Shown: piece by piece, positions 1 through 24,192 of the stretch
Numbering within the stretch: the first letter of the stretch is position 1
Layout of the letters: every line of letters begins with the position of its first letter
The notes under the pieces: model-generated
What the model saw: the letters and a program-made list of their open reading frames with translations, nothing else
Told to the model about the DNA's origin: nothing
Database searches by the model: none
Source: a virus
Virus record (IMG/VR): IMGVR_UViG_3300023174_002543
Coordinates: 187,664 to 251,663 of that record
Length of the DNA: 64,000 nucleotides
Direction: 5' to 3' (one strand)
Position numbers and translations under genes: made by a program

Positions 1-1285
1 ATGTGTCATTAAATTCACTACGGTCAAAGAATACATCTACCCAATGATTATCTACTGTAGAATGAAATAGGCTGCGCTTTCTTTTGTTATTGGGTTTATA
101 TTCACTAGGACTATCACCTAATTCAGTAAGTTGTTTTTGTGGTTTGATACGTGTTAATGTATAGATCGCGGCACTGGGATAATCTTTTCTTGTCAAATCG
201 TAACCGGTACCAGTGATATATCTTTGAAGCATTCTATCATACAGTCTAGCTCTACTGCCTGTAGGGTCATCATCTTTTTCTGCACTGAAATTCAACATCA
301 CCGGTTTACGCTTGGCAATGAATTGTTGCATGGCAGTCAACACAGTGGCAAACACACGCGGAGCATCGCCTTCTCCGGTGATCTCCATGTTTTCATCACG
401 CTCAAACTCCACCATCCAGCTGTTGTCGCCCTGGGCCATGAACAGTACAACTAATTCACTGCCGTCATCTAAGTCGGATGTAGCATGCCAGTCACCATTT
501 GTTTTTTCCCAATGAACATTATAAGGTTGGTTAAAGGCTTCTAGTATACCTTGTTCTTTAAGTTGCGGTATCGGAACATATGCTAGTATATCTTTTTTAT
601 TCATTAACTCGGCAGCGGCCCATGCTCTATGTGTACCATCTAATATATAACCTCTTGTATCTATAACAATAGGTCTCTTGTCTATATGATGCATACTATA
701 TTCACCTGCATGTCTAAAGTCTACAAATCTGCCACGACCGTATGGATCATATGTATCAGGTTCTTGTTCTGCATCATCATACTCTTGGTCAGGTATATGT
801 AGACTAGATAAAGGAACACGCTTCAATTGATATTGCGGATGACGCATTATTAATCTCTTTAAGAATCCACCACCTTGTTGGTCTTTAGGATGTATATCAC
901 CTACATAATTCCATACTTCTATATTGGATACAACATTAGAATTTGTTTCTTCCCAAACACGAACTTCTTCTCCACGGTGTTTATTCCAGAAACCTGCACC
1001 TGCATCAGTTTGGTCATAACTTCTAACAATCTTATAGCCAAGTTTTTTGATATAATCATACATCACTTTAGCAATACCTTGACCTTGATATTTTTCATTA
1101 ACCCACAGGTCTTGTGGATCTAGCTCTTTGTCATCACCCATATAGAATGTAACATGACCTAATACGTTATTACCCCAGTCATCAAGGGCATCAACCATTA
1201 ACTCATAGTCATTCTTGGTTACTTTTAGTGTTATGCCTTCGTAGTCTACTAGTTTGGCTTCTGTTATAAATTCACTTGCTCTCAT
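1..1285 (-). CDS. Partial (3' end beyond window) large protein starting MRASEFITEA (T4 CTS-like leader); GNAT acetyltransferase-like motif (KYQGQGIAKVMYDYIKKLGY), ParB/Srx-like motif (IVIDTRGYILDGTHRAWAAAELM) and a second copy of the 'EAFxQPY...ITGEGDA..FATVL' domain found at the N-terminus of the next gene
   Basis: Manual reverse translation from ATG at 1285-1283 (ORF track omits it because it runs off the window); start overlaps upstream stop as ATGA; 28-nt DNA identity with 3207-3235. Confidence 0.5.
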   Translation of the reverse strand, partial: MRASEFITEAKLVDYEGITLKVTKNDYELMVDALDDWGNNVLGHVTFYMGDDKELDPQDLWVNEKYQGQGIAKVMYDYIKKLGYKIVRSYDQTDAGAGFWNKHRGEEVRVWEETNSNVVSNIEVWNYVGDIHPKDQQGGGFLKRLIMRHPQYQLKRVPLSSLHIPDQEYDDAEQEPDTYDPYGRGRFVDFRHAGEYSMHHIDKRPIVIDTRGYILDGTHRAWAAAELMNKKDILAYVPIPQLKEQGILEAFNQPYNVHWEKTNGDWHATSDLDDGSELVVLFMAQGDNSWMVEFERDENMEITGEGDAPRVFATVLTAMQQFIAKRKPVMLNFSAEKDDDPTGSRARLYDRMLQRYITGTGYDLTRKDYPSAAIYTLTRIKPQKQLTELGDSPSEYKPNNKRKRSLFHSTVDNHWVDVFFDRSEFNDT

Positions 1286-3231
1286 AGTACTGCCAAATAT
1301 TCTTTAAATTTATTGTGTCTATCTTGTAGTCCACTTAGACCGGGATTGATTGCATTGGTTACTTCTTTTGTGTTGCTAAAATTACTAACATTGGGTCTAA
1401 CTTGATTCTTCCAGAACCATAGTGCAATTTGAGCACCTACATCTAGATTACTAGCCAGGTCGGGGTTTTTTACCAATCTATCATCTCCGAATATTTGCTT
1501 GCTTGCTCGGGTATAATTGTCACGTCCAGTCAACTGAATAAAGCCACGACCTTTAAATAGTTCTCCGTCGCCTTTTACTTTGTTACCTAATTGTCTTGCC
1601 TTGCGCGGAGCTTCATATTTGGCAAATCTTTTTTTATTGCCCACTTCCTTCATCTTACCAAAGTCCCAACTCTCATGCCGAGTCTGAGCCATGAATTGTG
1701 CCAGTTCTACTCCATTGAGTCCTGCGGCTTTAGCAGCAGTTTGTAGTGCAGCTTCAGCATCACTATTGTCACTTAATAATGTTACACCTTTTTCTTCTTC
1801 TTTGTCATCACGTGAAAACTTTGGAATCATTGATGTAAGTTTATCTTTAAATGAAGTTGTTGGTTGTGCAACTGGTTGTGCAACTTTAGTAGGCTCTTGC
1901 TTAAGAGTAGGCTTTACAGTAGCGGGCATTTTACTAATAGGTTTAGAATAATCAGGTACTATAACTTTTTGTCCTATTTCTAACTTAGTATTACGACCCA
2001 TCTTGTTGAGTTTGTATATCTCTAATGGATTTACATTGTTTTGTCTTGCTATACTGTAAACGGTATCTCCGGGTTCAACTATTTGTTGAACCATTTGAGG
2101 AGCCTTTGCATTAGCACCCATTGCCATCGCACCTGCCATAGCACCTGTTGCTAGTGCAGATTTCCAATCTTCTTCTAACTCATTTTCTGTTACACCTTGC
2201 TTACTTTCATTCATACCCTCTGCACCATAATGAGCAATTTTACCTGCTTTGTGCATGTTTTTTACTTGTTTGAATACTTTATCTAAATCATCAGTAACAC
2301 GGACTATCCACCCTTGACTAGCGATATATTTAAATGGATCACCGATGGGCATTTGTTTAATAGGCTTACTAGGATTTTCACTAAACCATTCACCTGTTGG
2401 TAATTGTCTGAAATCGCCAGCATCAAACACAGTTAAGTAAGTTTTACGACTACGCATTGCTGGCAAATCTTTTTGGTCAAAATAAACAATAGGTTGACCG
2501 TTTTGCGTAAACTCTACATAGCGTGTTTCATGTGCATTGCCTGTAGCGTACAGTGCTGTTCTACGCGGATCACCGGCAAACAATCCTTTAGTAGTGTTAG
2601 TTTTAAGATTTTTGTTTTTCCAATAACTATCGTCACCTGTATCTAAACCACTCTGACTCCAATCATCCGTATGCTTGTATGCTTTGAGGCCAGACACAAA
2701 ATCTGTGACAGGTTTAGAATCAATTCGTGTTACTGTTGCACCTTCCGCCACACCTTGTTTTAATCTACTCAATTCATATATAACTAAATCACCATTATCT
2801 GCACGAAAAGCCCTATAACCCCAGGCTTTGGCATAACGAATCACCAGTCTGTCATACAACTTGGCACGACTCTCAGGATTTGGTTGAGGCTGGTCAGGCT
2901 CATAATATATTGTTGGATCAGTTGCTTTAATAGCTGAAAAACTCAATCTTGAAGGTTTGTATTTTTTGATGTATTTTTGTATAGCGTTTAACACCGTGGC
3001 AAAGATACGCTGTGCATCACCTTCGCCTGTGACTTCTTGGCTGTTGTTTCTATAAAATTCAACCTGCACTACTTCTTTGCCTTCGTCATCTTGTTGATTG
3101 TTGAACATGATGCTTAAATTTGTTCCGTCGGGCAATTTTGTGTTTAAATCAACGTCACCGTAATCGCTTTTTTCCCATTTGCCTTTATAGGGTTGGTCAA
3201 AGGCCTCTGTTATAAATTCACTTGCTCTCAT
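1282..3231 (-). CDS. CTS-like leader (MRASEFITEAF) + duplicated N-domain + LysM (GDTVYSIARQNNVNPLEIYKLN) + C-terminal GH19 chitinase-like lysozyme domain (GRGFIQLTGRDNY); probable virion/injected peptidoglycan hydrolase. ORF-track start 3282; internal Met at 3231 preferred
   Basis: Motifs read from translation; GH19 signature GxGxIQLTGxxNY; LysM consensus. Confidence 0.6.
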   Translation of the reverse strand: MRASEFITEAFDQPYKGKWEKSDYGDVDLNTKLPDGTNLSIMFNNQQDDEGKEVVQVEFYRNNSQEVTGEGDAQRIFATVLNAIQKYIKKYKPSRLSFSAIKATDPTIYYEPDQPQPNPESRAKLYDRLVIRYAKAWGYRAFRADNGDLVIYELSRLKQGVAEGATVTRIDSKPVTDFVSGLKAYKHTDDWSQSGLDTGDDSYWKNKNLKTNTTKGLFAGDPRRTALYATGNAHETRYVEFTQNGQPIVYFDQKDLPAMRSRKTYLTVFDAGDFRQLPTGEWFSENPSKPIKQMPIGDPFKYIASQGWIVRVTDDLDKVFKQVKNMHKAGKIAHYGAEGMNESKQGVTENELEEDWKSALATGAMAGAMAMGANAKAPQMVQQIVEPGDTVYSIARQNNVNPLEIYKLNKMGRNTKLEIGQKVIVPDYSKPISKMPATVKPTLKQEPTKVAQPVAQPTTSFKDKLTSMIPKFSRDDKEEEKGVTLLSDNSDAEAALQTAAKAAGLNGVELAQFMAQTRHESWDFGKMKEVGNKKRFAKYEAPRKARQLGNKVKGDGELFKGRGFIQLTGRDNYTRASKQIFGDDRLVKNPDLASNLDVGAQIALWFWKNQVRPNVSNFSNTKEVTNAINPGLSGLQDRHNKFKEYLAVL

Positions 3232-3782
3232 AGACTCTTGCCCCAACGTGTATTGATGACATTCCAGTTTATGATCTTCCATTGTTCACGCAAATACTTC
3301 TTTTTATCGGCTCCGTAGTCAAGTGTCCAGGCATGTTCCCACCAATCAATTAATAACAATATATCATTACGAACTTCATGGTTTTTGATTGTTTTGAGTT
3401 TGCCATCACTTGCTAGATAAATCCAACCACTACCCTGTATAGTCATAGCCTCAGTCTCAATACTATCTTTGAGACCGTCGTAACTTCCATAATGCTTGTT
3501 TATAAATCCAAGCATAGGGCCGTTGGGCTTGTTATTGTTGCGTACCTCACGGAACTGAGGGAACAGAGTATTGTGTAGGAAAGCACCTGCGTAGTTAAAT
3601 TCTTTATCACCTTCACCCTTGTTATATCTATCAGCATATCCATGTGCTAGTTTACCAAAGTGCAAGTCTAAGGCACCGGCACTGAATACAGGCTTTACAT
3701 CCTTATATTCAAAATTTAACGGAATGATTTCTATATCTTGAGGCTTGTTTTTATCCTCAAGAAGGCTGATTATATCTCGCAT
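3228..3782 (-). CDS. Fe/Mn superoxide dismutase-like protein (C-terminal DWWEHAW..LDY motif = DxWEHAYY metal-ligand motif; H-x3-K-x2-H N-terminal region)
   Basis: Motif match in translation; 184 aa slightly short for SodA/B. Confidence 0.5.
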   Translation of the reverse strand: MRDIISLLEDKNKPQDIEIIPLNFEYKDVKPVFSAGALDLHFGKLAHGYADRYNKGEGDKEFNYAGAFLHNTLFPQFREVRNNNKPNGPMLGFINKHYGSYDGLKDSIETEAMTIQGSGWIYLASDGKLKTIKNHEVRNDILLLIDWWEHAWTLDYGADKKKYLREQWKIINWNVINTRWGKSL

Positions 3783-3813
3783 ACTTATATTTATCGTATG
3801 CGAGATATGTTTA

Positions 3814-6153
3814 TCAGAAGCGTACTGCTAATTGAATTTGTGCTATATCAGCAACGACTCCATTTTGTCTTTGTTGACCTATTTTTAGTATCATAGTAGA
3901 GTTGTTTTGTGCGTTATACATCAATGTTCCGTAAGCAGTAGATAGATTTTTATTGTTTTGTGCTACTTCCCCGGATACTGCCCAATTTTGATTAAATTGG
4001 TGTTCATAGCGCATTCCATACTCTGTAGTATCAACTGTTTGCTTTAGGTTAGTATAGTCAACTGCTGTTAGTGAAGAACCAGTTTCCATAACATAGTCAC
4101 GTGAATTATGTTCTTTTCTAGCACCAACGAAAGGTCTGAATCCCTTCATAGCAGGGGTATATACACGCAAATGCGCCCAGGTATCCTGACCATGTGTATT
4201 AGCATTGTTACTCATACTTAATTCAGGTAATGTATGGAATGTATTATAAGTATTTTTGGATTGTCCTACATCAGTTTTAAATATCCAATCATTATGTACA
4301 TATAGGTTATAGATAGTAAGTGCTTCTTTGTATAAACTACCGCCACTGTTAGTGCCATCTAATACAGTGCTTATTCGGTTGTATTGTAAACCTAACAATG
4401 AAGAACGACTAATTCTATGCTCTGCACCAAATGTATCTATTGTTGCAGTATAACTATACCCATCTGATAAGTTAGACTTTGTTTTTGAACCATGTATATA
4501 AATGTTAATATCACGGTCATCAAAACTACGGTTAGAGATTCTATCGTCTTTAACTAAGTTTCTACTTAATGGATCACTTAATAAACTATAGTTGATTCTA
4601 GTATTGGTTTCAGATAGTTTATCCATTTGGTCAATGCGTGTAGTATAGTTTTGATCCGTTGAGGTAATCTGAACATCATCTACAATAGTTGTAGTTGTTG
4701 TCACATCATTTCTTGTAGTAACTACGGTTACAGGAGTATCTGTTGTAGTAGTTGTTGTACCATCACTCCAAGTAGTAACTGAAGTAGGAGTTGTAACGGT
4801 AGTTATAGTTACCGGTGTTGTATTAGTAACCACAGTAGTTACAGGTGTTGTACTAGTTAGTGTGGTAGTACGAATGATATTGAGTTCTCTTACACCACGC
4901 TCACCTCTAGTATTAGCATATGTAGTAACATCAACGGTTGAACCCCTTGTTATATTACTTGTTGTTACTGTTGTACCTGGTGTTTCTGTTACTACAACCG
5001 ATGATGTGCCCGGTGTAGTACTGACTACTGTAGGTGCAGGTGTAGACATACTGCTTACAGAGCCTGCGGTTCCTGGATTAGCAATAGAACCAACTAATGT
5101 ACTTGTGCTGGTTGATGTGTTATTACTATCATAGTAATAGGTAACTTCACCTATCTGTACGCTATCACATGCTAATGTACCTAATGCTGATTGACAACCT
5201 GATATTGAACCATACGTATCAATAGCCTTAATGCTAGGGAATGTTATAAAGTAATAAACATATGGATTATTATTATTAATAGTAATCATACTTGTTTGAG
5301 TATAACGACCGCTGACATTTTCTAATGTTGTACTTTGATTTGCAGTAATCTCAGTCCAAGTACGACCATCATTACTACCATACAAGGTAAACTTAGTAGG
5401 ATCTCTTGGTACAAAGTCGTTAGCAGTAGTAAATTTAATACCATTGATGACTTTACCTGCATTCAATGTAATTGTAAATCCTGCATTAGCACGGTCAAAG
5501 TTTAAATATTTCGTACCACTACTTCCGTCAACTGCCTTAGTTGCACCTTCACCACTTGGACTATTACTACTTGTAGGAGTAACAGTACTGATAATGCTAC
5601 TTGTAACTGCTGTATAGTTTACAGTAGGTGCAACAGTTTGTCCTGCGGCTAATGGAGTAGTTGAACCACCTACACTCAATGCATTAACTTGTGATAATGT
5701 TGGATTGCGTGTTCCAGTCCATGACAACCCACTAGTGTTAGCAAAACCTTGTGTCATACTAAACAACTGACCGGTGTTGTTATCATTGCCCACAAAGAAG
5801 AAATAGTCTGTGCCCATATTAATAATATGCCCAGTGCCCATTACTGCTTTTTGAACGCCTGCTGAATTATATTGAATAGCATTGTATGGATTTGTGCTGT
5901 TACCTGTAGCTACAAATTTAATATAGTCTCCGGAAGACCAACTTAGTTGACCACTTGTCCATGGAATCTTATATGCTGTTCCAGGATTTTTACTATAGAT
6001 TTGACAAGTGGTCGTATTCATACAAGCATTAACATTCCACTGACTATCTGCTATCTGTGCTTGACCAAATTGTAAATCTGTAAAATCTGCACTTGCATTT
6101 ACGCTCATGGCGGTAAGCAGAGCCATAATGGCTCCCTTTAAAAATCTTATCAT
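3814..6153 (-). CDS. Secreted/outer-membrane protein: Sec signal peptide (MIRFLKGAIMALLTAMSVNASA), F5/8 type C (discoidin) domain (KAVDGSSGTKYLNFD...), long Thr-rich linker, C-terminal autotransporter-like beta-barrel ending in ...LAVRF
   Basis: Signal peptide and terminal aromatic residue seen in translation; Thr-codon repeats 4690-5100. Confidence 0.5.
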   Translation of the reverse strand: MIRFLKGAIMALLTAMSVNASADFTDLQFGQAQIADSQWNVNACMNTTTCQIYSKNPGTAYKIPWTSGQLSWSSGDYIKFVATGNSTNPYNAIQYNSAGVQKAVMGTGHIINMGTDYFFFVGNDNNTGQLFSMTQGFANTSGLSWTGTRNPTLSQVNALSVGGSTTPLAAGQTVAPTVNYTAVTSSIISTVTPTSSNSPSGEGATKAVDGSSGTKYLNFDRANAGFTITLNAGKVINGIKFTTANDFVPRDPTKFTLYGSNDGRTWTEITANQSTTLENVSGRYTQTSMITINNNNPYVYYFITFPSIKAIDTYGSISGCQSALGTLACDSVQIGEVTYYYDSNNTSTSTSTLVGSIANPGTAGSVSSMSTPAPTVVSTTPGTSSVVVTETPGTTVTTSNITRGSTVDVTTYANTRGERGVRELNIIRTTTLTSTTPVTTVVTNTTPVTITTVTTPTSVTTWSDGTTTTTTDTPVTVVTTRNDVTTTTTIVDDVQITSTDQNYTTRIDQMDKLSETNTRINYSLLSDPLSRNLVKDDRISNRSFDDRDINIYIHGSKTKSNLSDGYSYTATIDTFGAEHRISRSSLLGLQYNRISTVLDGTNSGGSLYKEALTIYNLYVHNDWIFKTDVGQSKNTYNTFHTLPELSMSNNANTHGQDTWAHLRVYTPAMKGFRPFVGARKEHNSRDYVMETGSSLTAVDYTNLKQTVDTTEYGMRYEHQFNQNWAVSGEVAQNNKNLSTAYGTLMYNAQNNSTMILKIGQQRQNGVVADIAQIQLAVRF

Positions 6154-6241
6154 TGTAGAACTCCTTTGTTATTTTTATTATTGTTTGTCTACAATAATAT
6201 TTAACTAAAGAGTTGGTGCAATCAATGCTAGTATTTATTTT

Positions 6242-7135
6242 TTAGCAGTTGTACACGCCTGGATCCATAACTATAGTACCATTACCGTCTGAATTATACC
6301 AACTACCTCCGCCAGCACCAGCACCACTGTATGGGCTATCCGAACTACGTGATAATCCTATGAAGGTTAACTGGTGTCCTACTGCACTGTTATCTTCTGC
6401 TAATGTAGGATTTCCATACCCAAGTGATTGAATCAATGCGATACAATTTGAAACAGCAGGTAATGGTGCAGTTGGAACTGTAATTGTACTTGATGTTGGA
6501 TTATATACATACGAATTTGAAACTATGCGAATATCTGTTTGATAACCTACAAAAGGTAAACCATCTTGCGGATTTGGCCAACCATTACCAATAGTCAATG
6601 AATTAGATTCATACACTATATTGTCTGTTTGCGTACCACCGCAACGAACTCCGTTAACCCAAACGGCCTCTACATTACTATTGGCAGCATTTCTACTTAC
6701 TGCAATATGATACCAAACATTTTTTACAAAATTTGTACTAGGTACATATATATTTTGACCAACAAAATATCCATCTACTCTTATGTTTGAATTATTAACT
6801 GTTTGACTACCGTCCCAATAATTATCATTAACATATATTCCTAGATAGTGCGGTTGTCTTGTGGTATCGCTTGGACTACCTATAAAAGTACCTACGCATC
6901 TACTAGCACTATTATCCCATTTAACCCATCCCTCTACTGTAAATGAACGGGTAGTAGTTGGTCTTGCTTTACCAGTTATGAGATTATAAGGTCCGGTATA
7001 ATCTGTGTTATTTACGATAGCGTCATTTGGAGTAGAACCGGATCCACCTCCACCTCCGCCTGTGCCGGCTCCGAATGTGATCCCTTTGCCTATTGTTAGG
7101 CCTGCGTGTAATGTTAATGTTAATGGTGCAACCAT
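6242..7135 (-). CDS. Gly-rich protein with LamG/ConA-like jelly-roll features (TFTVEGWVKWD...); possible fibre/adhesin component
   Basis: Weak motif-level similarity only. Confidence 0.3.
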   Translation of the reverse strand: MVAPLTLTLHAGLTIGKGITFGAGTGGGGGGSGSTPNDAIVNNTDYTGPYNLITGKARPTTTRSFTVEGWVKWDNSASRCVGTFIGSPSDTTRQPHYLGIYVNDNYWDGSQTVNNSNIRVDGYFVGQNIYVPSTNFVKNVWYHIAVSRNAANSNVEAVWVNGVRCGGTQTDNIVYESNSLTIGNGWPNPQDGLPFVGYQTDIRIVSNSYVYNPTSSTITVPTAPLPAVSNCIALIQSLGYGNPTLAEDNSAVGHQLTFIGLSRSSDSPYSGAGAGGGSWYNSDGNGTIVMDPGVYNC

Positions 7136-7171: not shown

Positions 7172-7387
7172 TTAACGTCTACGGGTAATTCTGCCCTTAG
7201 ATAAATCATAGGGGCTAAACTCTACCTCTACAGTATCGCCTAATAATATCTTAATATCGTGCTTACGCATTCTACCACTAATATAGCCCATTATGATATT
7301 ACTACCGGGCATCTCTATCCTAAACATAGCGTTGGGTAATACTTCTACTACCTTCCCGTCTAGTTTAATACCTTCTTCTTTTGCCAT
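7172..7387 (-). CDS. infA: Translation initiation factor IF-1
   Basis: 71 aa; near-colinear with E. coli InfA (MAKE..NAMFR.E...[27 protein letters not shown]). Confidence 0.85.
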
Positions 7388-9909: not shown

Positions 9910-10068
9910 ATGGCAGATAATAATAAAAAAGAAGAATACGAATCCTTATGGGAATCATTTGTTGATATGGGAATTAAAAAGGCTTTATTACTAGTATGGT
10001 CTGTGTATATAGTAGCATATATTGCAGCCATGGCTATATTGTATTGGGCCCACAAACATTATAGATAA
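9910..10068 (+). CDS. Small (52 aa) membrane protein, not in ORF track
   Basis: Manual translation MADNNKKEEYESLWESFVDMGIKKALLLVWSVYIVAYIAAMAILYWAHKHYR. Confidence 0.3.
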   Translation: MADNNKKEEYESLWESFVDMGIKKALLLVWSVYIVAYIAAMAILYWAHKHYR

Positions 10069-10117
10069 AATAAATAATTATATGAAATTATCACTATATA
10101 CAATTAATACACATCAT

Positions 10118-10140
10118 GCCCCTATTTTGGGGCTTTTTTT
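10118..10140 (+). terminator. Rho-independent terminator GCCCC-TATTTT-GGGGC-TTTTTTT
   Basis: Perfect 5-bp GC stem + 7 T. Confidence 0.65.
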
Positions 10141-10153
10141 AGGAGGAAAACCT

Positions 10154-10291
10154 ATGAGTTGGTTTAATAGAAAACCCAGATTAAGAGAACCAAGCAGACC
10201 TTCTGCGCCACATCGCACTAGTCCAGTCTCAGAAAAAATATTAAAAGAAGCAAAAAAATTAGGTCCAAAGAAAAAACTAAAAAAAGAATGA
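10154..10291 (+). CDS. Small (45 aa) Lys/Pro-rich basic protein; AGGAGG RBS 8 nt upstream
   Basis: Terminator at 10118-10140 lies inside the longer ORF-track ORF 10022..10291, so the downstream ATG 10154 with consensus SD is preferred. Confidence 0.45.
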   Translation: MSWFNRKPRLREPSRPSAPHRTSPVSEKILKEAKKLGPKKKLKKE

Positions 10292-10344
10292 AGTATTAGT
10301 TTACCCAAGTTTTATCTTTATAAATATATACAAAGGTAACTTAT

Positions 10345-10536
10345 ATGATAACAAAAATGATATGTAGGTTGCGTAAACTTTTAATATATGTATTCAAGGA
10401 AATACCAATTATATTGTTACTTGAGATATGGACTATCGCTAGGGTGTTGTCAACCTTAACGATAGTATTCTATATTATAATTAACAATTTTTTGAAAAAT
10501 AATGTTGATGCTTGTATATTAAGTTTTTTTAAATAG
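10345..10536 (+). CDS. Hypothetical small hydrophobic protein
   Basis: ORF only. Confidence 0.25.
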   Translation: MITKMICRLRKLLIYVFKEIPIILLLEIWTIARVLSTLTIVFYIIINNFLKNNVDACILSFFK

Positions 10537-10543
10537 GCTATTT

Positions 10544-10852
10544 ATGAAATTTTTATACACACTTTTACTATTATCAGTTATGACAACTGCAAATGCTCAA
10601 GTCTCAGAAACTATTACAACCGTTATGCCATGCGGTGAAACAAAACTTATTACTGATAAGTTAAAAAACAGTTATAATGAGAACCCTATTATAATCGGTA
10701 TAGCCGATGATGAGGTTAATAGTTTAATGTCATTGTGGGCTAATACTAAAACCGGTAGTTGGACACTAGTTGCATCTAGTCAAGGACTAAGTTGCATTAT
10801 AGGTACTGGAAAAAATTTAAAGGTTGTCGAGTCTGCTGGCAAGACTATTTAA
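10544..10852 (+). CDS. Small secreted protein (signal peptide MKFLYTLLLLSVMTTANA|Q)
   Basis: Signal peptide pattern. Confidence 0.45.
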   Translation: MKFLYTLLLLSVMTTANAQVSETITTVMPCGETKLITDKLKNSYNENPIIIGIADDEVNSLMSLWANTKTGSWTLVASSQGLSCIIGTGKNLKVVESAGKTI

Positions 10853-20708: not shown

Positions 20709-20760
20709 AGCGGGCCTCGAAAGCGCCCGCTATCTTTATAGAATCTTATTTAGATTCTTT
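20709..20760 (-). terminator. Two tandem hairpins (AGCGGGC..GCCCGCT and AGAATCT-TATTT-AGATTCT) immediately after dnaK stop
   Basis: Inverted repeats read directly. Confidence 0.4.
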
Positions 20761-22677
20761 TACCTCTGCATCAACCACTGTTGACTCATCAACGGGTTTT
20801 GCAGTTTCTTCTGTAGTAGCAGTTGGATTTGCTGCCTCTTCAGCCTTCTTCTTGGCTTCTTCTTCCTCATACTTAAACTTAGTAATTGGACCGATAGCCT
20901 CGTATAACTTAGGAATACTATCTTGGATTGCTTTAGGATCATCACCTTCCATAGCAGTTTCAACAGCCTTAATAGCTTCGTCTGCTTTGTTGCGTTCTTC
21001 TTCGGTGACCTTATCCTTATAAGCCTCAAAGTCTTTCTTAAAGCCAAACAATGTACCTTCAGCACTATTACGTGCTTGTACTAATTCAACATGTTTCTTA
21101 TCGGCTTCAGCATTCAACTCACCATCTTTAACCATTTGTTGAATTTCTGCTTCACTTAATCCTGAATTAGCCTTGATAGTGATTTTGTTCTCTTTACCAG
21201 TACCTTTGTCCTTAGCGGACACTTTGAGAATACCGTTAGCATCAATATCTAATGTAACTTCAATCTGTGGTTGACCACGTGGTGCTGGTGGAATGTCACC
21301 CAAACTAAACTCACCCAATACTTTATTATATTGGAATAGTTCACGTTCACCTTGACCTACTTTAATAGTAACTGCCGGCTGATTGTCATCCGCAGTACTA
21401 AAAGTTTGTGAATGTTTAGTTGGGATAGTTGTATTCTTGTTAATCAATTTAGTGAATACACCACCGACTGTTTCGATACCAAGACTCAATGGAGTAACGT
21501 CAAGTAATAGAACGTCACTACGGCCACCACTCAATACATCACCCTGAATAGCAGCACCTGCGGCAACTGCTTCGTCTGGGTTAACATCTTTGCGTGGTGC
21601 CTTGCCGAATAATGATTCAACAACTTCTTGCACCTTAGGCATACGTGTCATACCGCCAACTAAGATAACTTCATCAATGTCACCTGCACTAACATTAGCA
21701 TCTTGCATAGCCTGACGACATGGAGCCAAACTACGTTGGATTAACTCGTCAACCAATTGTTCTAATTTAGAACGTGATAGTTTAACGTTCATGTGCTTAG
21801 GACCATTTGCATCGGCTGTAATATATGGCAAGTTAACATCTGTTTGTGCTGAACTTGATAATTCAATCTTAGCCTTTTCTGCGGCTTCTTTTAGTCGTTG
21901 TAGTGCCAACACATCTTTACTTAAATCAACTCCGTTGTCTTTCTTAAACTCATCAATTAAGAAATCCATAATACGTTGGTCAAAGTCTTCACCACCTAAG
22001 AATGTATCACCGTTCGTAGACAATACTTCGATTTGTTTGTCACCGTCAACATCTGCTAATTCAATGATAGATACGTCAAATGTACCACCACCTAAGTCAT
22101 AGACTGCAATTTTACGGTCACGTTTTTCTTGTTTATCAACACCATATGCTAGTGCGGCCGCTGTTGGCTCGTTAATAATACGCAATACTTCTAAGCCTGC
22201 AATTTTACCTGCATCCTTAGTTGCTTGACGTTGACTATCGTTAAAGTAAGCAGGAACTGTAATAACTGCTTGGGTTACATCATGTCCAAGATAGTCTTCG
22301 GCAGTCTTTTTCATCTTGCGTAGTACTTCGGCACTAATTTGCGGGGGTGCTAACTTTTCATCATTAACTTGTACCCATGCATCACCGTTATCGTTCTGTA
22401 CGATTTTGTATGGCATTAGGTCAATATCTTTTTGCACAGCCTGTTCATTAAACTTACGTCCAATTAAACGTTTGCTTGCATAGATTGTGTTCTTTGGATT
22501 TGTAACTGCTTGGCGTTTGGCGCTTGCACCAACCAAGATTTCATCGTTTGCGTAGGCAACGATTGAGGGTGTAGTTCTAGCACCTTCTGAATTTTCAATT
22601 ACTTTGGGGATTCCGTTTTCGATAACGGCTACGCATGAATTTGTGGTACCCAAATCGATACCGATGACTTTGCTCAT
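20746..22677 (-). CDS. dnaK: Hsp70 chaperone DnaK
   Basis: [25 protein letters not shown], full-length 643 aa. Confidence 0.9.
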
Positions 22678-22783: not shown

Positions 22784-23002
22784 TTAATATTGTTTAGGGG
22801 GAAGTGTTTGGTCACGCAAATACTTTTTCCAACGACTCTTTGCTTTACTCTTATCTATCTTACGCTTAGTAGTGGGTTTTACAAATTCTTGTCTATCACG
22901 GATTTCTTGGATTAATCCTGACTCTAAGATTTTTTTTTTGAATTTACGTAATGCTTTTTCAACATTTCCGTCTGGTCCTACTATTACTTTTCTTCCTGGC
23001 AT
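22784..23002 (-). CDS. rpsU: Ribosomal protein bS21
   Basis: MPxxKV....ALR.FK......G...E.R.R..F.KPT..RK motif, 72 aa. Confidence 0.8.
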   Translation of the reverse strand: MPGRKVIVGPDGNVEKALRKFKKKILESGLIQEIRDRQEFVKPTTKRKIDKSKAKSRWKKYLRDQTLPPKQY

Positions 23003-24192
23003 ATGATTGGTGTTGGTTTAATAATCTGCTCCCTACTTATATTTATCTTTTTAACATTAAACTTACGATATTCACGTGTCCGATACATATGGCACATTAA
23101 TGCTTTTTCAATTTCAGTGTGCAAGCCCCTAGCACCGGTCTTTAGTGCTAGTGTATTTTCTGCTAATTGATCCAATGCATCTTCTGTAAAGGTCAAATCA
23201 ATTTCATCTAATTTAAGCAAATATTGATATTGACTGATATAGTTGTTTTTCACATCTGTAAGAATATGTATTAATTGTTCTTTAGTGAGGTTTTTTACAC
23301 TAATAGTGGTTGTAAAACGACCTACAAATTCCGGAATTAATCCAAACTTAGTCAAGTCATCAGGGGTGACTTCTGACAAATCACCTTCTATTTTACTATC
23401 TTTAATGTCTGCGGCAAATCCAATACTAGTACCATTGGTGCGTTTTGCTATAATTTCTTTTAATCCTACAAATGCACCACCTGCAATGAATAATATATTT
23501 TTAGTATCAATCTCAACCATGTCTGAACCAGGGTGTTTACGTCCACCTTGATTAGGTACACGACAAACTGTACCCTCAACTAACTTAAGCAATGCTTGCT
23601 GTACGCCCTCACCTGACACATCACGGGTAATGCTAGTACTTTCACTTTTACGGGCAATTTTGTCAATTTCATCAATGAATACGATACCCTTTTCAGCTAA
23701 AGATTTGTCTCCTCCAGCCGCGTTAAGCAACATACTAATCATTGATTCAACATCATCACCTACATATCCGGCTTCGGTTAAACTAGTAGCATCGGCAACA
23801 ACAAACGGAACCTTTAAATACTTGGCGGCAGTTTTAGCCAATAGTGTTTTACCACTACCAGTTGGACCAACTAACAATACATTGCCTTTTTGAATTTCTA
23901 AGTCTTTGGGAGGACGACTAATACGCTTATAATGATTAGTGATTGCGACACTTAACACTATTTTAGCACTATCTTGACCCACAATATGTTGGTCCAAATA
24001 TTCTTTAATACTTTCAGGATCATATTGGGGTTCTTCTTGTGGACCTGAGGTTTCATCAACTATTAATTCTTGGCAAAGTTCAACACAATCGCTACAGATT
24101 GCTACACTTTCACCTACGATTAATTTTTTGACTGTTTCTTTACTAGTACCACAAAAACTACAATGAGTGAGTTGTTTATTTTCTTCTGTCAT
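22984..24192 (-). CDS. clpX: ClpX ATP-dependent unfoldase (N-terminal C4 zinc-binding domain CSFCG..CSDC; Walker A GPTGSGKT)
   Basis: ZBD + AAA+ motifs. Confidence 0.85.

Follow-up and report, generated by a model that had tools for sequence, protein, structure and literature searches.

Introduction

The internal proteins (IPs) of phage T4 start with a capsid targeting sequence (CTS), MKTYQEFIAE, which is cut once after the Glu and which packages foreign proteins when fused to them. According to reviews, the IPs of the T-even phages form a diverse set with only the CTS in common. Another T4 protein, Alt, starts with MELITE|LFDE; six residues are removed at ITE-6 and gp21 also cuts the protein at LTE-619. 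In giant phages of the phiKZ and SPN3US type, ejection proteins are processed by a gp21-like protease at (S/A/G)-x-E, and the polyvalent proteins described by Iyer, Burroughs, Anand, de Souza and Aravind (2017) are predicted to be packaged in the head and delivered with the DNA. The T4 CTS, processing by gp21 and polyvalent proteins are already known. Here we analyze a stretch of 64,000 nucleotides (the window) from the IMG/VR virus record IMGVR_UViG_3300023174_002543 (positions 187,664 to 251,663), in which two adjacent genes, A and B, open with the decapeptide MRASEFITEA, referred to as the leader. We consider it fairly probable that the leader is a portable N-terminal propeptide of the T4 capsid-targeting type and that the proteins bearing it are processed, packaged and injected polyvalent effectors.

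Proteins injected together with the phage DNA act before phage gene expression and are therefore foremost candidates for a role in counter-defence and host takeover. As a rule, only virion proteomics of cultured phages reveals them. If the leader is a true capsid-targeting and cleavage signal, it would list the injected effectors of uncultured giant phages from the sequence alone. What appears to be new is such a leader in uncultured T4-superfamily jumbo phages and on large polyvalent enzymes, together with a junction motif, QGVxE, and a recurrent domain of GNAT-like fold (the hub) as organizer. In the searchable literature we found no description of the leader family, of QGVxE junctions or of a DUF6934-like organizing hub.

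Results and Discussion

Genes A and B

The source of the window is contig k141_1370133 (369,957 bp) of the ENA metagenome assembly ERZ27247972, of which approximately 82 kb were read; the window corresponds to about 98,008-162,007 of this contig, in reverse orientation. In the following, L-numbers denote the loci and contigs examined and P-numbers denote hub-domain proteins. Genes A and B as well as the superoxide dismutase (SOD) gene upstream of them are all located on the minus strand. Gene A (1282..3231; coding 3231..1285, stop codon 1282-1284) encodes 649 amino acids, and its product is identical to the ENA gene call. Gene B (1..1285) is cut by the left window edge, which leaves 428 of its 528 amino acids visible; on the source contig the full-length gene is found at L002:11947-13533. 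The parts of gene A are, in order, the leader, the hub domain, a DUF6886-like module, a Gly/Ala-rich hydrophobic segment, LysM and GH19. Those of gene B are the leader, a GNAT domain, a ParB/Srx-like module, the hub domain and the beginning of a further hub copy, which is degenerate.

The leader occupies positions 3202..3231 in gene A (amino acids 1-10) and 1256..1285 in gene B, both on the minus strand, and in both a prohead-protease site is predicted at ITE9|A10. Cleavage there would yield proteins starting with AFDQPYK… and AKLVDYEGITLK…; at the junctions within gene A the predicted new starts are G164 and N350. The translations bear out the preliminary description of this DNA in that the identical decapeptide opens both genes, and the ATGA overlaps of the two starts with the upstream stop codons, also mentioned there, lie at 3228-3231 (gene A) and 1282-1285 (gene B). 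The duplicated DNA block around the start codons is real as well, although its limits had been given a few bases off (1255-1285 and 3207-3235). Pairwise alignment places an exact 28-nt repeat at 3206..3233 (start of gene A) and 1260..1287 (start of gene B), and in the surroundings of the two start codons 32 of 33 nucleotides are identical. The chance expectation for an exact 28-nt repeat in 64 kb is about 3e-8 by our own rough estimate. The two genes had further been called tandem paralogues. This is not simply so: what they have in common is the portable leader and one GNAT-fold hub domain (amino acids 7-158 of gene A against 247-381 of gene B, 45% identity, E = 6e-32).

A six-frame scan of the window revealed no other EF[ILVM]xE[AGS] peptide, and at gene starts within the window the strict leader occurs only on genes A and B. 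A megablast search with positions 1-6200 against 50,697 phage records (INPHARED) gave no match.

The leader in uncultured phages

We scanned the IMG/VR contigs with a degenerate DNA pattern for M-R-A-[STRC]-E-F-I-T-E-A. The pattern was found on 51 viral contigs, every time at the start of an open reading frame (ORF). Stripped of the leader, the 57 corresponding proteins fall into 11 clusters without detectable mutual similarity. Among these, the leader precedes the shared hub domain, a Gly/Ala-rich segment with GH19, a ParB-like module, a kinase-like protein of 372 amino acids, and small tandem proteins of ~130 amino acids adjoining a terminase gene. The hub domain is wholly absent from at least 10 cargo families bearing the full decapeptide. 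Since the leader is found on 51 contigs with unrelated cargos, its identity in genes A and B does not reflect a local duplication. Conservation of the leader is 100% even between proteins whose cargo shares only 45-50% identity, which argues for an independent function of the leader. As a control and sister set we used 120 IMG/VR loci (L069-L188) picked by the S77 protease motif KGICIQGGV, comprising 921 kb of T4-like sequence around the head module; none of its 7,911 M-starts carries the strict leader. Relaxed scans yielded variants, often several per locus, such as MRAKEFVSEV, MRATEFLTEL, MRAYEFLIEG, MKIVELLNEA and MKINELLNEG.

At the DNA level the leader is represented by 35 distinct 30-mers in its 57 occurrences, with every synonymous codon used, and the sequences upstream of it on different contigs are mutually unrelated. 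Free variation of synonymous codons around an invariant peptide indicates selection on the peptide and not on the DNA or RNA. Over the 30 nt of the leader, genes A and B differ at one position, as compared with four differences for the neighboring gene C. This near-identity of A and B suggests that the leader recently underwent gene conversion or recombination.

Gene C (L002:13538-14083) is the gene that immediately follows gene B, outside the left window edge. Its product has 181 amino acids and starts with MRATEFITEAKV (leader MRATEFITEA). No Pfam match was obtained for it; homologues with the same leader are present on the viral contigs L049 and L051. Beyond the right window end the sequence could be extended by 8.8 kb with contig L191 (L191:8764-20723 is 100% identical to window positions 64000-52041). 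Four more tandem genes with leader-like N-termini are located there, at L191:613-6873. They start with MNIIELMEG (547 amino acids, PF17338 GP88), MRFSEFNKINEA (488 amino acids, trace of LysM), MRAHELEESA (MRAHELEESAVDELK; 499 amino acids, DnaJ-type zinc finger) and MRANEFLIEY (310 amino acids), and are followed by a DsbA-like gene and a full-length DNA polymerase B of 902 amino acids. Judged by their translated N-termini, at least seven leader-type genes are present in this phage, in two clusters.

The commonest leader family consists of tandem paralogues of ~125-135 amino acids beside a gp17-like terminase gene (L016:3979-4371, L015:311-1475; L005-L055). Their C-terminus is mostly …K[PG]FKGYKK or a close variant. 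Large hub proteins (up to 1,759 amino acids) show a second conserved N-terminal class, M[DN][IL]KEL[DNEH]SF[KR]…DA[VI][KT], which was seen in P0254, P0283, P0318, P0322, P0323, P0325, P0335, P0338, P0343 and P0346. It may be another targeting or structural N-terminus.

Comparison of the leader with known propeptides

The leader shares several features with those of the T4 IPs. It comprises about 10 residues, namely M, a basic residue and, further on, E-F-I-x-E|A, and ends in the gp21 motif [LI]-x-E; it is conserved on unrelated cargos, the genes often occur in tandem, and many of the proteins are small with a basic tail. In both cases an S77 prohead protease and a gp23-type capsid protein are encoded, here in relatives that carry the leader. 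The term T4 capsid-targeting-sequence-like, used in the preliminary description, is thus appropriate for a short, conserved peptide that ends in I-T-E|A, stands on unrelated cargos and is carried by phages encoding S77. The specific likeness to the IP leader holds for the common E-F-I-x-E-A, but the closer T4 analogue is Alt rather than IPI. There are also clear differences: the T4 IPs are small single-domain proteins, whereas here we find multi-domain enzymes of up to ~1,700 amino acids with internal junctions and a recurrent hub. Moreover, the phages in question have not been cultured; they are jumbo phages with Atu_ph07, Phosso and Vibrio phage 2.275.O as relatives, and packaging is inferred.

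Alt shares with the proteins described here the ITE| tripeptide near the N-terminus, followed by [AVL]-F-D, and a large enzyme cargo. All of ten T4-like Alt proteins (including that of T4) start with …[LIF]xE|[VL][FL][DE], and the hub starts with …E|A-F-D. In contrast, the catalytic module of Alt is an ADP-ribosyltransferase (ART) and not GNAT, ParB or GH19, and its leader is 6 residues long compared with 9 residues here. In a BLASTP comparison of the hub with Alt only EFITEAFDQ and ELITELFDE were aligned (E = 0.098), and the hub hidden Markov model (HMM) had no match in the Alt N-terminal domain. For a profile comparison an alignment of Alt N-termini was built from 10 T4-like GenBank records.

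Other T4 head proteins have comparable sequences, namely gp22 (MLKEQLIAEA), gp24 (MAKINELLRES), gp67 (MEGLIEA) and gp23 (…FLTEAEIGG). We take the cut positions to be MLKEQLIAE|A in gp22, MAKINELLRE|S in gp24 and …FLTE|A in gp23. The leader variant MKINELLNEG resembles the gp24 propeptide.

With the phiKZ- and SPN3US-type phages the present system shares a large number of head-internal proteins cut after Glu by a T4-related prohead protease (here predicted), as well as paralogues with identical N-terminal propeptides, for example gp53 and gp54 of SPN3US. It differs in the P3 residue, which is small in those phages and aliphatic (L/I/V/M) here and in T4. Furthermore, the phage lineage is a different one and homologous cargo was not detected.

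Head genes and prohead protease

We searched T4 head proteins against all ORFs of the leader-bearing loci. Homologues of gp17 were found in 12 ORFs and of gp18 in 3 ORFs. Loci L035 and L036 contain homologues of gp21 (E = 1e-18) and gp23 (E = 8e-44) beside a leader-GH19 gene. The protease of these carrier phages belongs to PF03420 (Peptidase_S77) and is 35% identical to T4 gp21; the HP, GVSSRG and PSAP motifs, which presumably include the catalytic residues, can be aligned. On the 251-kb contig L189 the gene order is Portal_T4, an 80-amino-acid gene, an acidic protein of 283 amino acids, S77 (10001-10639), scaffold, Gp23 and leader-GH19. The protein immediately after Gp23 (285 amino acids) is composed of MRASEFITEA, a Gly/Ala-rich segment and GH19. 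S77 protease and leader genes share a contig in the relatives L035, L036, L189 and L190. A scan of IMG/VR with a protease DNA motif had none of the 51 leader contigs among the matches listed. The head proteins of the carrier phages also open with [L]-x-E: the protease with MTVLLRE|S, the scaffold with MLE|A and the capsid protein with MTQQLLE|S. Upstream of the portal gene, at L189:4234-4791, there is a Gly-rich protein of 185 amino acids that starts with MKSKDILNE|G, an N-terminus resembling the T4 gp24 propeptide MAKINELLRE|S.

In sequence, the capsid protein of L036 comes closest to its counterparts in the jumbo phages Phosso, PA5oct and Vibrio phage 2.275.O; for the DNA polymerase of the window the nearest relatives are found in Atu_ph07, Phosso, XaC1, Vibrio phage 2.275.O and RaK2. 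Phosso and Vibrio phage 2.275.O are matched by both proteins, and matches to two closely related Erwinia jumbo phages were obtained in addition. For Atu_ph07, 16 homologues of T4 core genes have been reported. The accessible part of the text on its virion proteome contains no zeta toxin, acetyltransferase or ParB entries.

The hub domain and its junctions

A search with amino acids 1-164 of gene A gave 388 close homologues from metagenomes (E ≤ 0.001). Among the 120 that were listed, identities range from 49 to 95% and are mostly 60-90%; many are annotated as PF22028 (DUF6934). A profile search of the hub in 1.84 billion representative proteins gave 3,703 clusters at E ≤ 1e-3. Hub-bearing proteins reach up to 1,759 amino acids and contain one to five copies of the domain. 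Many family members of ~210 amino acids comprise only the leader, the hub and a very basic tail, and in this they recall the basic T4 IPs.

Of the hub copies examined, nearly all follow the motif [LIVM]-x-E|[AGST]-F-[DN]-x-P-Y, both at the N-terminus and inside proteins. The ILE|A of gene B, suggested before as a possible second cleavage site, is one case of this general [LIVM]-x-E|[AGST] pattern. In P0002, the hub is joined to a GNAT domain of the gene B type via …SITE|AKLVDYEG… (SITEAKLVDYEG), which is the same junction as at the leader of gene B. A further motif, QG[VIL]xE, was counted 109 times in 261 proteins, where 4.7 occurrences would be expected (~23-fold enrichment; the maximum in shuffled sequences was 13). 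It precedes differing modules, including the non-hub modules starting with NFADG… and NELEED…. In gene A such junctions, KQGVAE163|G and KQGVTE349|N, coincide exactly with boundaries predicted between domains; the one in gene B is EQGILE249|A.

Pfam assigns a variety of partner domains to 72 hub proteins: GNAT (12), cytidine/dCMP deaminase (4), Pol-beta nucleotidyltransferase (4), GH19 (3), Zeta toxin (2) and cytidylyltransferase (2), as well as one each of NUDIX, GGACT, LysM, Amidoligase_2 and ART-PolyVal. Like the polyvalent proteins, these polypeptides combine disparate enzymatic domains, namely GNAT, ParB-like, lysozyme, ART-PolyVal, Zeta toxin, NUDIX, nucleotidyltransferase and deaminase. 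Since the partner repertoire of the hub is that of the polyvalent proteins of Iyer et al. 2017, we read genes A and B as polyvalent effectors. The MuF and MPTase hubs of the polyvalent class were not found as Pfam families in genes A and B or in the 72 hub proteins. Unlike the described polyvalent proteins, those analyzed here are organized by a T4-type leader, QGVxE junctions and a DUF6934-like hub of GNAT fold.

The AlphaFold model of the hub has a predicted local distance difference test score (pLDDT) of 78, which drops below 50 for residues 1-6. It consists of a weakly predicted N-terminal helix (the leader), four strands and a long helix after the TGEGDA loop, followed by a strand, a helix and two strands. 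Matches in the PDB are the GNAT-like regulatory domains of Mycobacterium tuberculosis ICL2 and of Rv1916, PatZ, NatC and other GNATs, with TM-scores of 0.3-0.44. Motif A is degenerate in the hub (VTGEGDA), which makes catalytic activity doubtful, and the domain probably represents a GNAT derivative devoid of catalysis.

Among predicted viral structures (Foldseek, BFVD) the hub matches three Atu_ph07 proteins, one of them a Zeta-toxin protein of 778 amino acids, and a ParB/Srx protein. Two further fold matches concern Alt-sized or ADP-ribosylating proteins: a 681-amino-acid protein of a T4-like Shigella phage, which has the size of Alt (E = 2.5e-6), and an Acinetobacter phage protein annotated as split RNA polymerase ADP-ribosylase (E = 2.9e-3), in both cases with the aligned region not reported. 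The fold matches hint at a relationship of the hub to the N-terminal domain of Alt, for which comparisons of sequences and profiles gave no confirmation.

Among cultured phages, the hub can be detected by sequence only in the T4-like Vibrio phages of the nt-1 group. In these, the hub is internal in ORF252 (…NLTE|AFDKPS…, HMM E = 2e-22). The neighboring ORF253 of Vibrio phage nt-1 starts with MIEFLTE|ADR, and both ORFs (L001, NC_021529: 151654-153164) lie among genes annotated as prohead protease inhibitor.

Domain content of gene A

In gene A, the hub domain (2743..3204, minus strand, amino acids 10-163) with its GNAT-like, DUF6934-like fold ends at the predicted junction KQGVAE163|G. It is followed by the DUF6886-like middle module (2185..2742, minus strand, amino acids 164-349; PF21820, E = 1e-6, 28.9 bits at a cut-off of 27), which ends at the predicted junction KQGVTE349|N. 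A Gly/Ala-rich hydrophobic segment, SALATGAMAGAMAMGANA, was read from the sequence at amino acids 358-375 (2107..2160, minus strand); in the leader-GH19 proteins of L020, L035 and L189 such a segment comes directly after the leader.

The C-terminal half of the protein contains the LysM (1954..2079, minus strand, amino acids 385-426) and GH19 lysozyme/chitinase-type (1285..1752, minus strand, amino acids ~494-649) domains already named in the preliminary description. Both calls are well founded: PF01476 was matched by LysM with E = 1.1e-9 and 38.5 bits (cut-off 20.9) and PF00182 by GH19 with 34.6 bits (cut-off 25.5), and the PHROG family phrog_181, an endolysin, was matched with E = 8e-31. The GH19 signature KGRGFIQLTGRDNY is present. 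The GH19 domain of gene A is 50% identical to that of the leader-GH19 protein in the L189 head module, with an identical decapeptide.

Directly upstream, overlapping with gene A by ATGA, lies a gene for an Fe/Mn superoxide dismutase (3228..3782, minus strand). The earlier assignment as SOD-like agrees with a Sod_Fe_C match (E = 7.5e-22); the gene is so far no more than a neighbor of the leader genes. An unusual N-terminal extension of ~19 amino acids, MRDIISLLED… (MRDIISLLEDKNKPQDIEI), precedes the canonical start of the SOD, and in this extension L7-L8-E9 are at the same positions as I7-T8-E9 of the leader. It would be pure speculation that the SOD gene product is also a protease substrate or a packaged protein.

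Domain content of gene B

The GNAT acetyltransferase domain of gene B (971..1255, minus strand, amino acids ~11-105) has QGQGIA as motif A. It matches PF00583 (Acetyltransf_1) with E = 1.8e-5 and 25.4 bits, above the cut-off of 20.7, and PF13508 with E = 4.3e-5, which substantiates the acetyltransferase motif noticed before. The next module (548..943, minus strand, amino acids 115-246) carries the motif DGTHRA and had been described as a ParB/Srx-like (DGTHR) domain. Fold and motif support this, but a profile match is absent: amino acids 115-246 gave no Pfam match even at an E-value limit of 10. The AlphaFold model (pLDDT 83) has weak PDB matches (E = 0.01-1.4, TM-score about 0.37), and the top 20 are all ParB-N, Noc, PadC or sulfiredoxin. 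Homologous modules are present in 11 other hub proteins. In an alignment of 10 modules (nine segments from eight hub proteins and gene B) DG-x-HRA is invariant.

After the predicted junction EQGILE249|A, hub copy 1 of gene B (131..547, minus strand, amino acids 250-385) is recognized by the hub HMM with E = 6e-47. This is the internal repeat of the EAFxQPY domain after ILE|A that had been pointed out earlier, and it is this copy that shares 45% identity with the hub in gene A. At 1..88 (minus strand) another hub-like copy, degenerate in sequence, begins (amino acids ~400-528) and continues past the window edge; its assignment is weak (hub HMM domain i-Evalue 0.0033, DUF6934 E = 0.039).

Proposed mechanism

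Based on the sequence comparisons and the models we propose the following course of events. During head assembly, the leader would dock the protein on the scaffolding core of the prohead. A prohead protease of the gp21 type (Peptidase_S77) would then cut after the Glu of [LIV]-x-E, here at ITE9|A10. Probably, the protease would also cut the junctions between the modules, i.e. QGVAE163|G and QGVTE349|N in gene A and QGILE249|A in gene B. The modules set free in this way would stay in the DNA-filled capsid and enter the host along with the genome. Gene A would deliver the GNAT-fold hub, the DUF6886-like module and a wall-degrading module made up of membrane segment, LysM and GH19, which would act on the cell wall during entry. 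Gene B would contribute one or two hubs as well as an acetyltransferase of the GNAT type and a ParB/Srx-like module (nuclease or NTPase), and the GNAT and ParB-like modules could act on host proteins or nucleic acids. In such cargos the hub is the shared structural partner. That it serves as a packing module binding the core or the DNA is a low-confidence proposal, and an anti-defence role of these effectors is speculation.

The leader thus probably marks proteins that these phages inject into their hosts, and genes A and B would represent injected polyvalent effectors as a class that extends over an uncultured clade of T4-superfamily jumbo phages. A more far-reaching version of this idea is a sorting code of three parts (an MRAxEF[ILV]xE| leader, QG[VIL]xE| junctions and the GNAT-fold hub), by which polyproteins are cut into effectors in the capsid. 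This we put forward tentatively, at slightly less than an even chance. If it is true, the whole injected proteome could be listed for thousands of metagenomic phages, covering acetyltransferases, ParB-like nucleases, deaminases, nucleotidyltransferases, Zeta kinases, ADP-ribosyltransferases and wall hydrolases. The leader would link polyvalent proteins to the T4 prohead protease and point to the way in which they are divided into units, and DUF6934-like domains would gain a proposed function. The leader could also be usable as a tag for loading foreign proteins into non-T4 capsids.

Alternative explanations

The leader might simply be the N-terminal helix of the hub, spread by recombination and without any role in targeting or cleavage, so that the conservation of [LIV]xE|AF would be structural. 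In gene A and in many homologues it indeed continues without a break into the hub (…ITEAFDQPY), residues 3-11 form a helix in the AlphaFold model, the xE-AF motif is kept at internal hub copies, and the 28-nt identity of genes A and B suggests recombination or gene conversion at this place. We nevertheless regard this explanation as unlikely: the full decapeptide stands on at least 10 cargo families without any hub and stays 100% conserved on cargo of 45-50% identity, residues 1-6 have a pLDDT below 50, and QG[VIL]xE is also found ahead of the non-hub modules NFADG… and NELEED…. The 28-nt identity, which in each of the two genes covers the start codon together with the ATGA overlap, could alternatively mean that the conserved element acts as DNA or RNA, either in translation initiation or coupling or as target of a site-specific recombination, with the peptide being incidental. 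For T-even IP cassettes, shuffling by recombination at the leader sequence has reportedly been proposed. Such a function is extremely unlikely in view of the invariant peptide encoded by 35 distinct 30-mers with every synonymous codon used across contigs, the mutually unrelated upstream sequences and gene C, which differs at 4 of 30 nt and yet encodes MRATEFITEA.

For gene A, a conventional role as lysis endolysin has to be considered, in which the Gly/Ala-rich segment would be an export element of the signal-anchor-release (SAR) type and the leader would serve export or activation. The PHROG families matched by the C-terminus are annotated as endolysin, tblastn matches are annotated as endolysins or lysin A, and a weakly hydrophobic Gly/Ala-rich segment ahead of a catalytic domain resembles SAR domains. 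The acidic flank N-terminal to the hydrophobic segment, by contrast, disfavors the N-in orientation of a SAR domain if the positive-inside rule is applied. In addition, the lysin module of gene A is located 350 residues downstream, behind the hub and a further module, which is atypical for an endolysin, and the same leader stands on GNAT, ParB-like, kinase-like and many small basic proteins without a role in lysis. A related gene composed of leader, transmembrane segment and GH19 lies inside the head morphogenesis operon of L189, and its position directly after the capsid gene favors a head-associated role over that of an endolysin, which we deem improbable. Finally, the window encodes a genuine ClpX (zf-C4_ClpX and AAA_2) and a DnaK, and the leader could be a tag for one or both of them, i.e. 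a degron that shortens the life of toxic enzymes or a handle by which an unfoldase assists delivery. For jumbo phages, Iyer et al. 2021 considered, as a speculation, that ClpX or ClpA may translocate proteins in virion assembly. The best matches of the leader are the propeptides cut by the T4 prohead protease, and a terminal degron would leave the internal QGVxE junctions unexplained. MRASEFITEA is also not known to fit the N-terminal motifs published for ClpX. A ClpX or DnaK tag, which would be compatible with packaging and not exclusive of it, therefore seems very unlikely to us.

Several results weigh against a packaged and processed protein family. Within the ~82 kb of this phage, genes for an S77 protease, a capsid protein and a portal protein were not found, and the S77 of this phage could not be identified among the best 120 of 8,000 protease homologues. 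Co-occurrence of leader and protease in the same genome is consequently shown only in relatives. The 120 sister-clade loci, whose S77 is up to 78% and whose capsid protein is up to 85% identical to that of L036, have no leader near the head module, and the tag is thus not a general property of this protease family; as far as these loci indicate, the leader is clade-specific or its genes are elsewhere in the sister-clade genomes. By tblastn with the commonest small leader family, no homologue of the leader-bearing families was obtained in cultured phages. The comparison of the hub with the N-terminal domain of Alt (10 T4-like Alt N-termini) by hhalign gave E = 0.021 at a probability of 2%, which is not significant. 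Since the hub model puts residues 3-11 in a helix, albeit of low confidence, the conservation of [LIV]xE|AF could in part be structural and not a requirement of cleavage. The T4-type late promoter TATAAATA has 3 matches against 10 expected.

Other features of the window

DnaK, ClpX, an ATP-dependent ligase and DNA polymerase B are encoded in the window, with nearly all genes on one strand, which indicates that it comes from a large phage. DnaK (20746-22677, minus strand) is 68% identical to DnaK in records labelled Pseudomonas and Acinetobacter phage. ClpX is located at 22984-24192 on the minus strand. The DNA polymerase seemed to be split, which we rejected: the 100% identical contig has the full polymerase of 902 amino acids and the window edge cuts the gene. 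Scans for sigma-70 promoters and terminators stayed at background level, and tRNA genes were not found in the 64-kb window.

A small protein of 71 amino acids at about 7172-7387 (minus strand) is labelled as IF1/eIF-1a-like by Pfam in the gene table of the contig. Between this gene and the SOD gene lie a gene for a protein of 779 amino acids (3814-6153, minus strand) and, after it, a gene for a Laminin_G_3 protein (6242-7135). The 779-amino-acid protein appears to have a signal peptide and contains an F5/8 type C (discoidin) domain and a long stretch rich in Thr; its C-terminus is …QLAVRF. The terminal Phe resembles the signature of outer-membrane beta-barrel proteins, which would be unusual for a phage gene.

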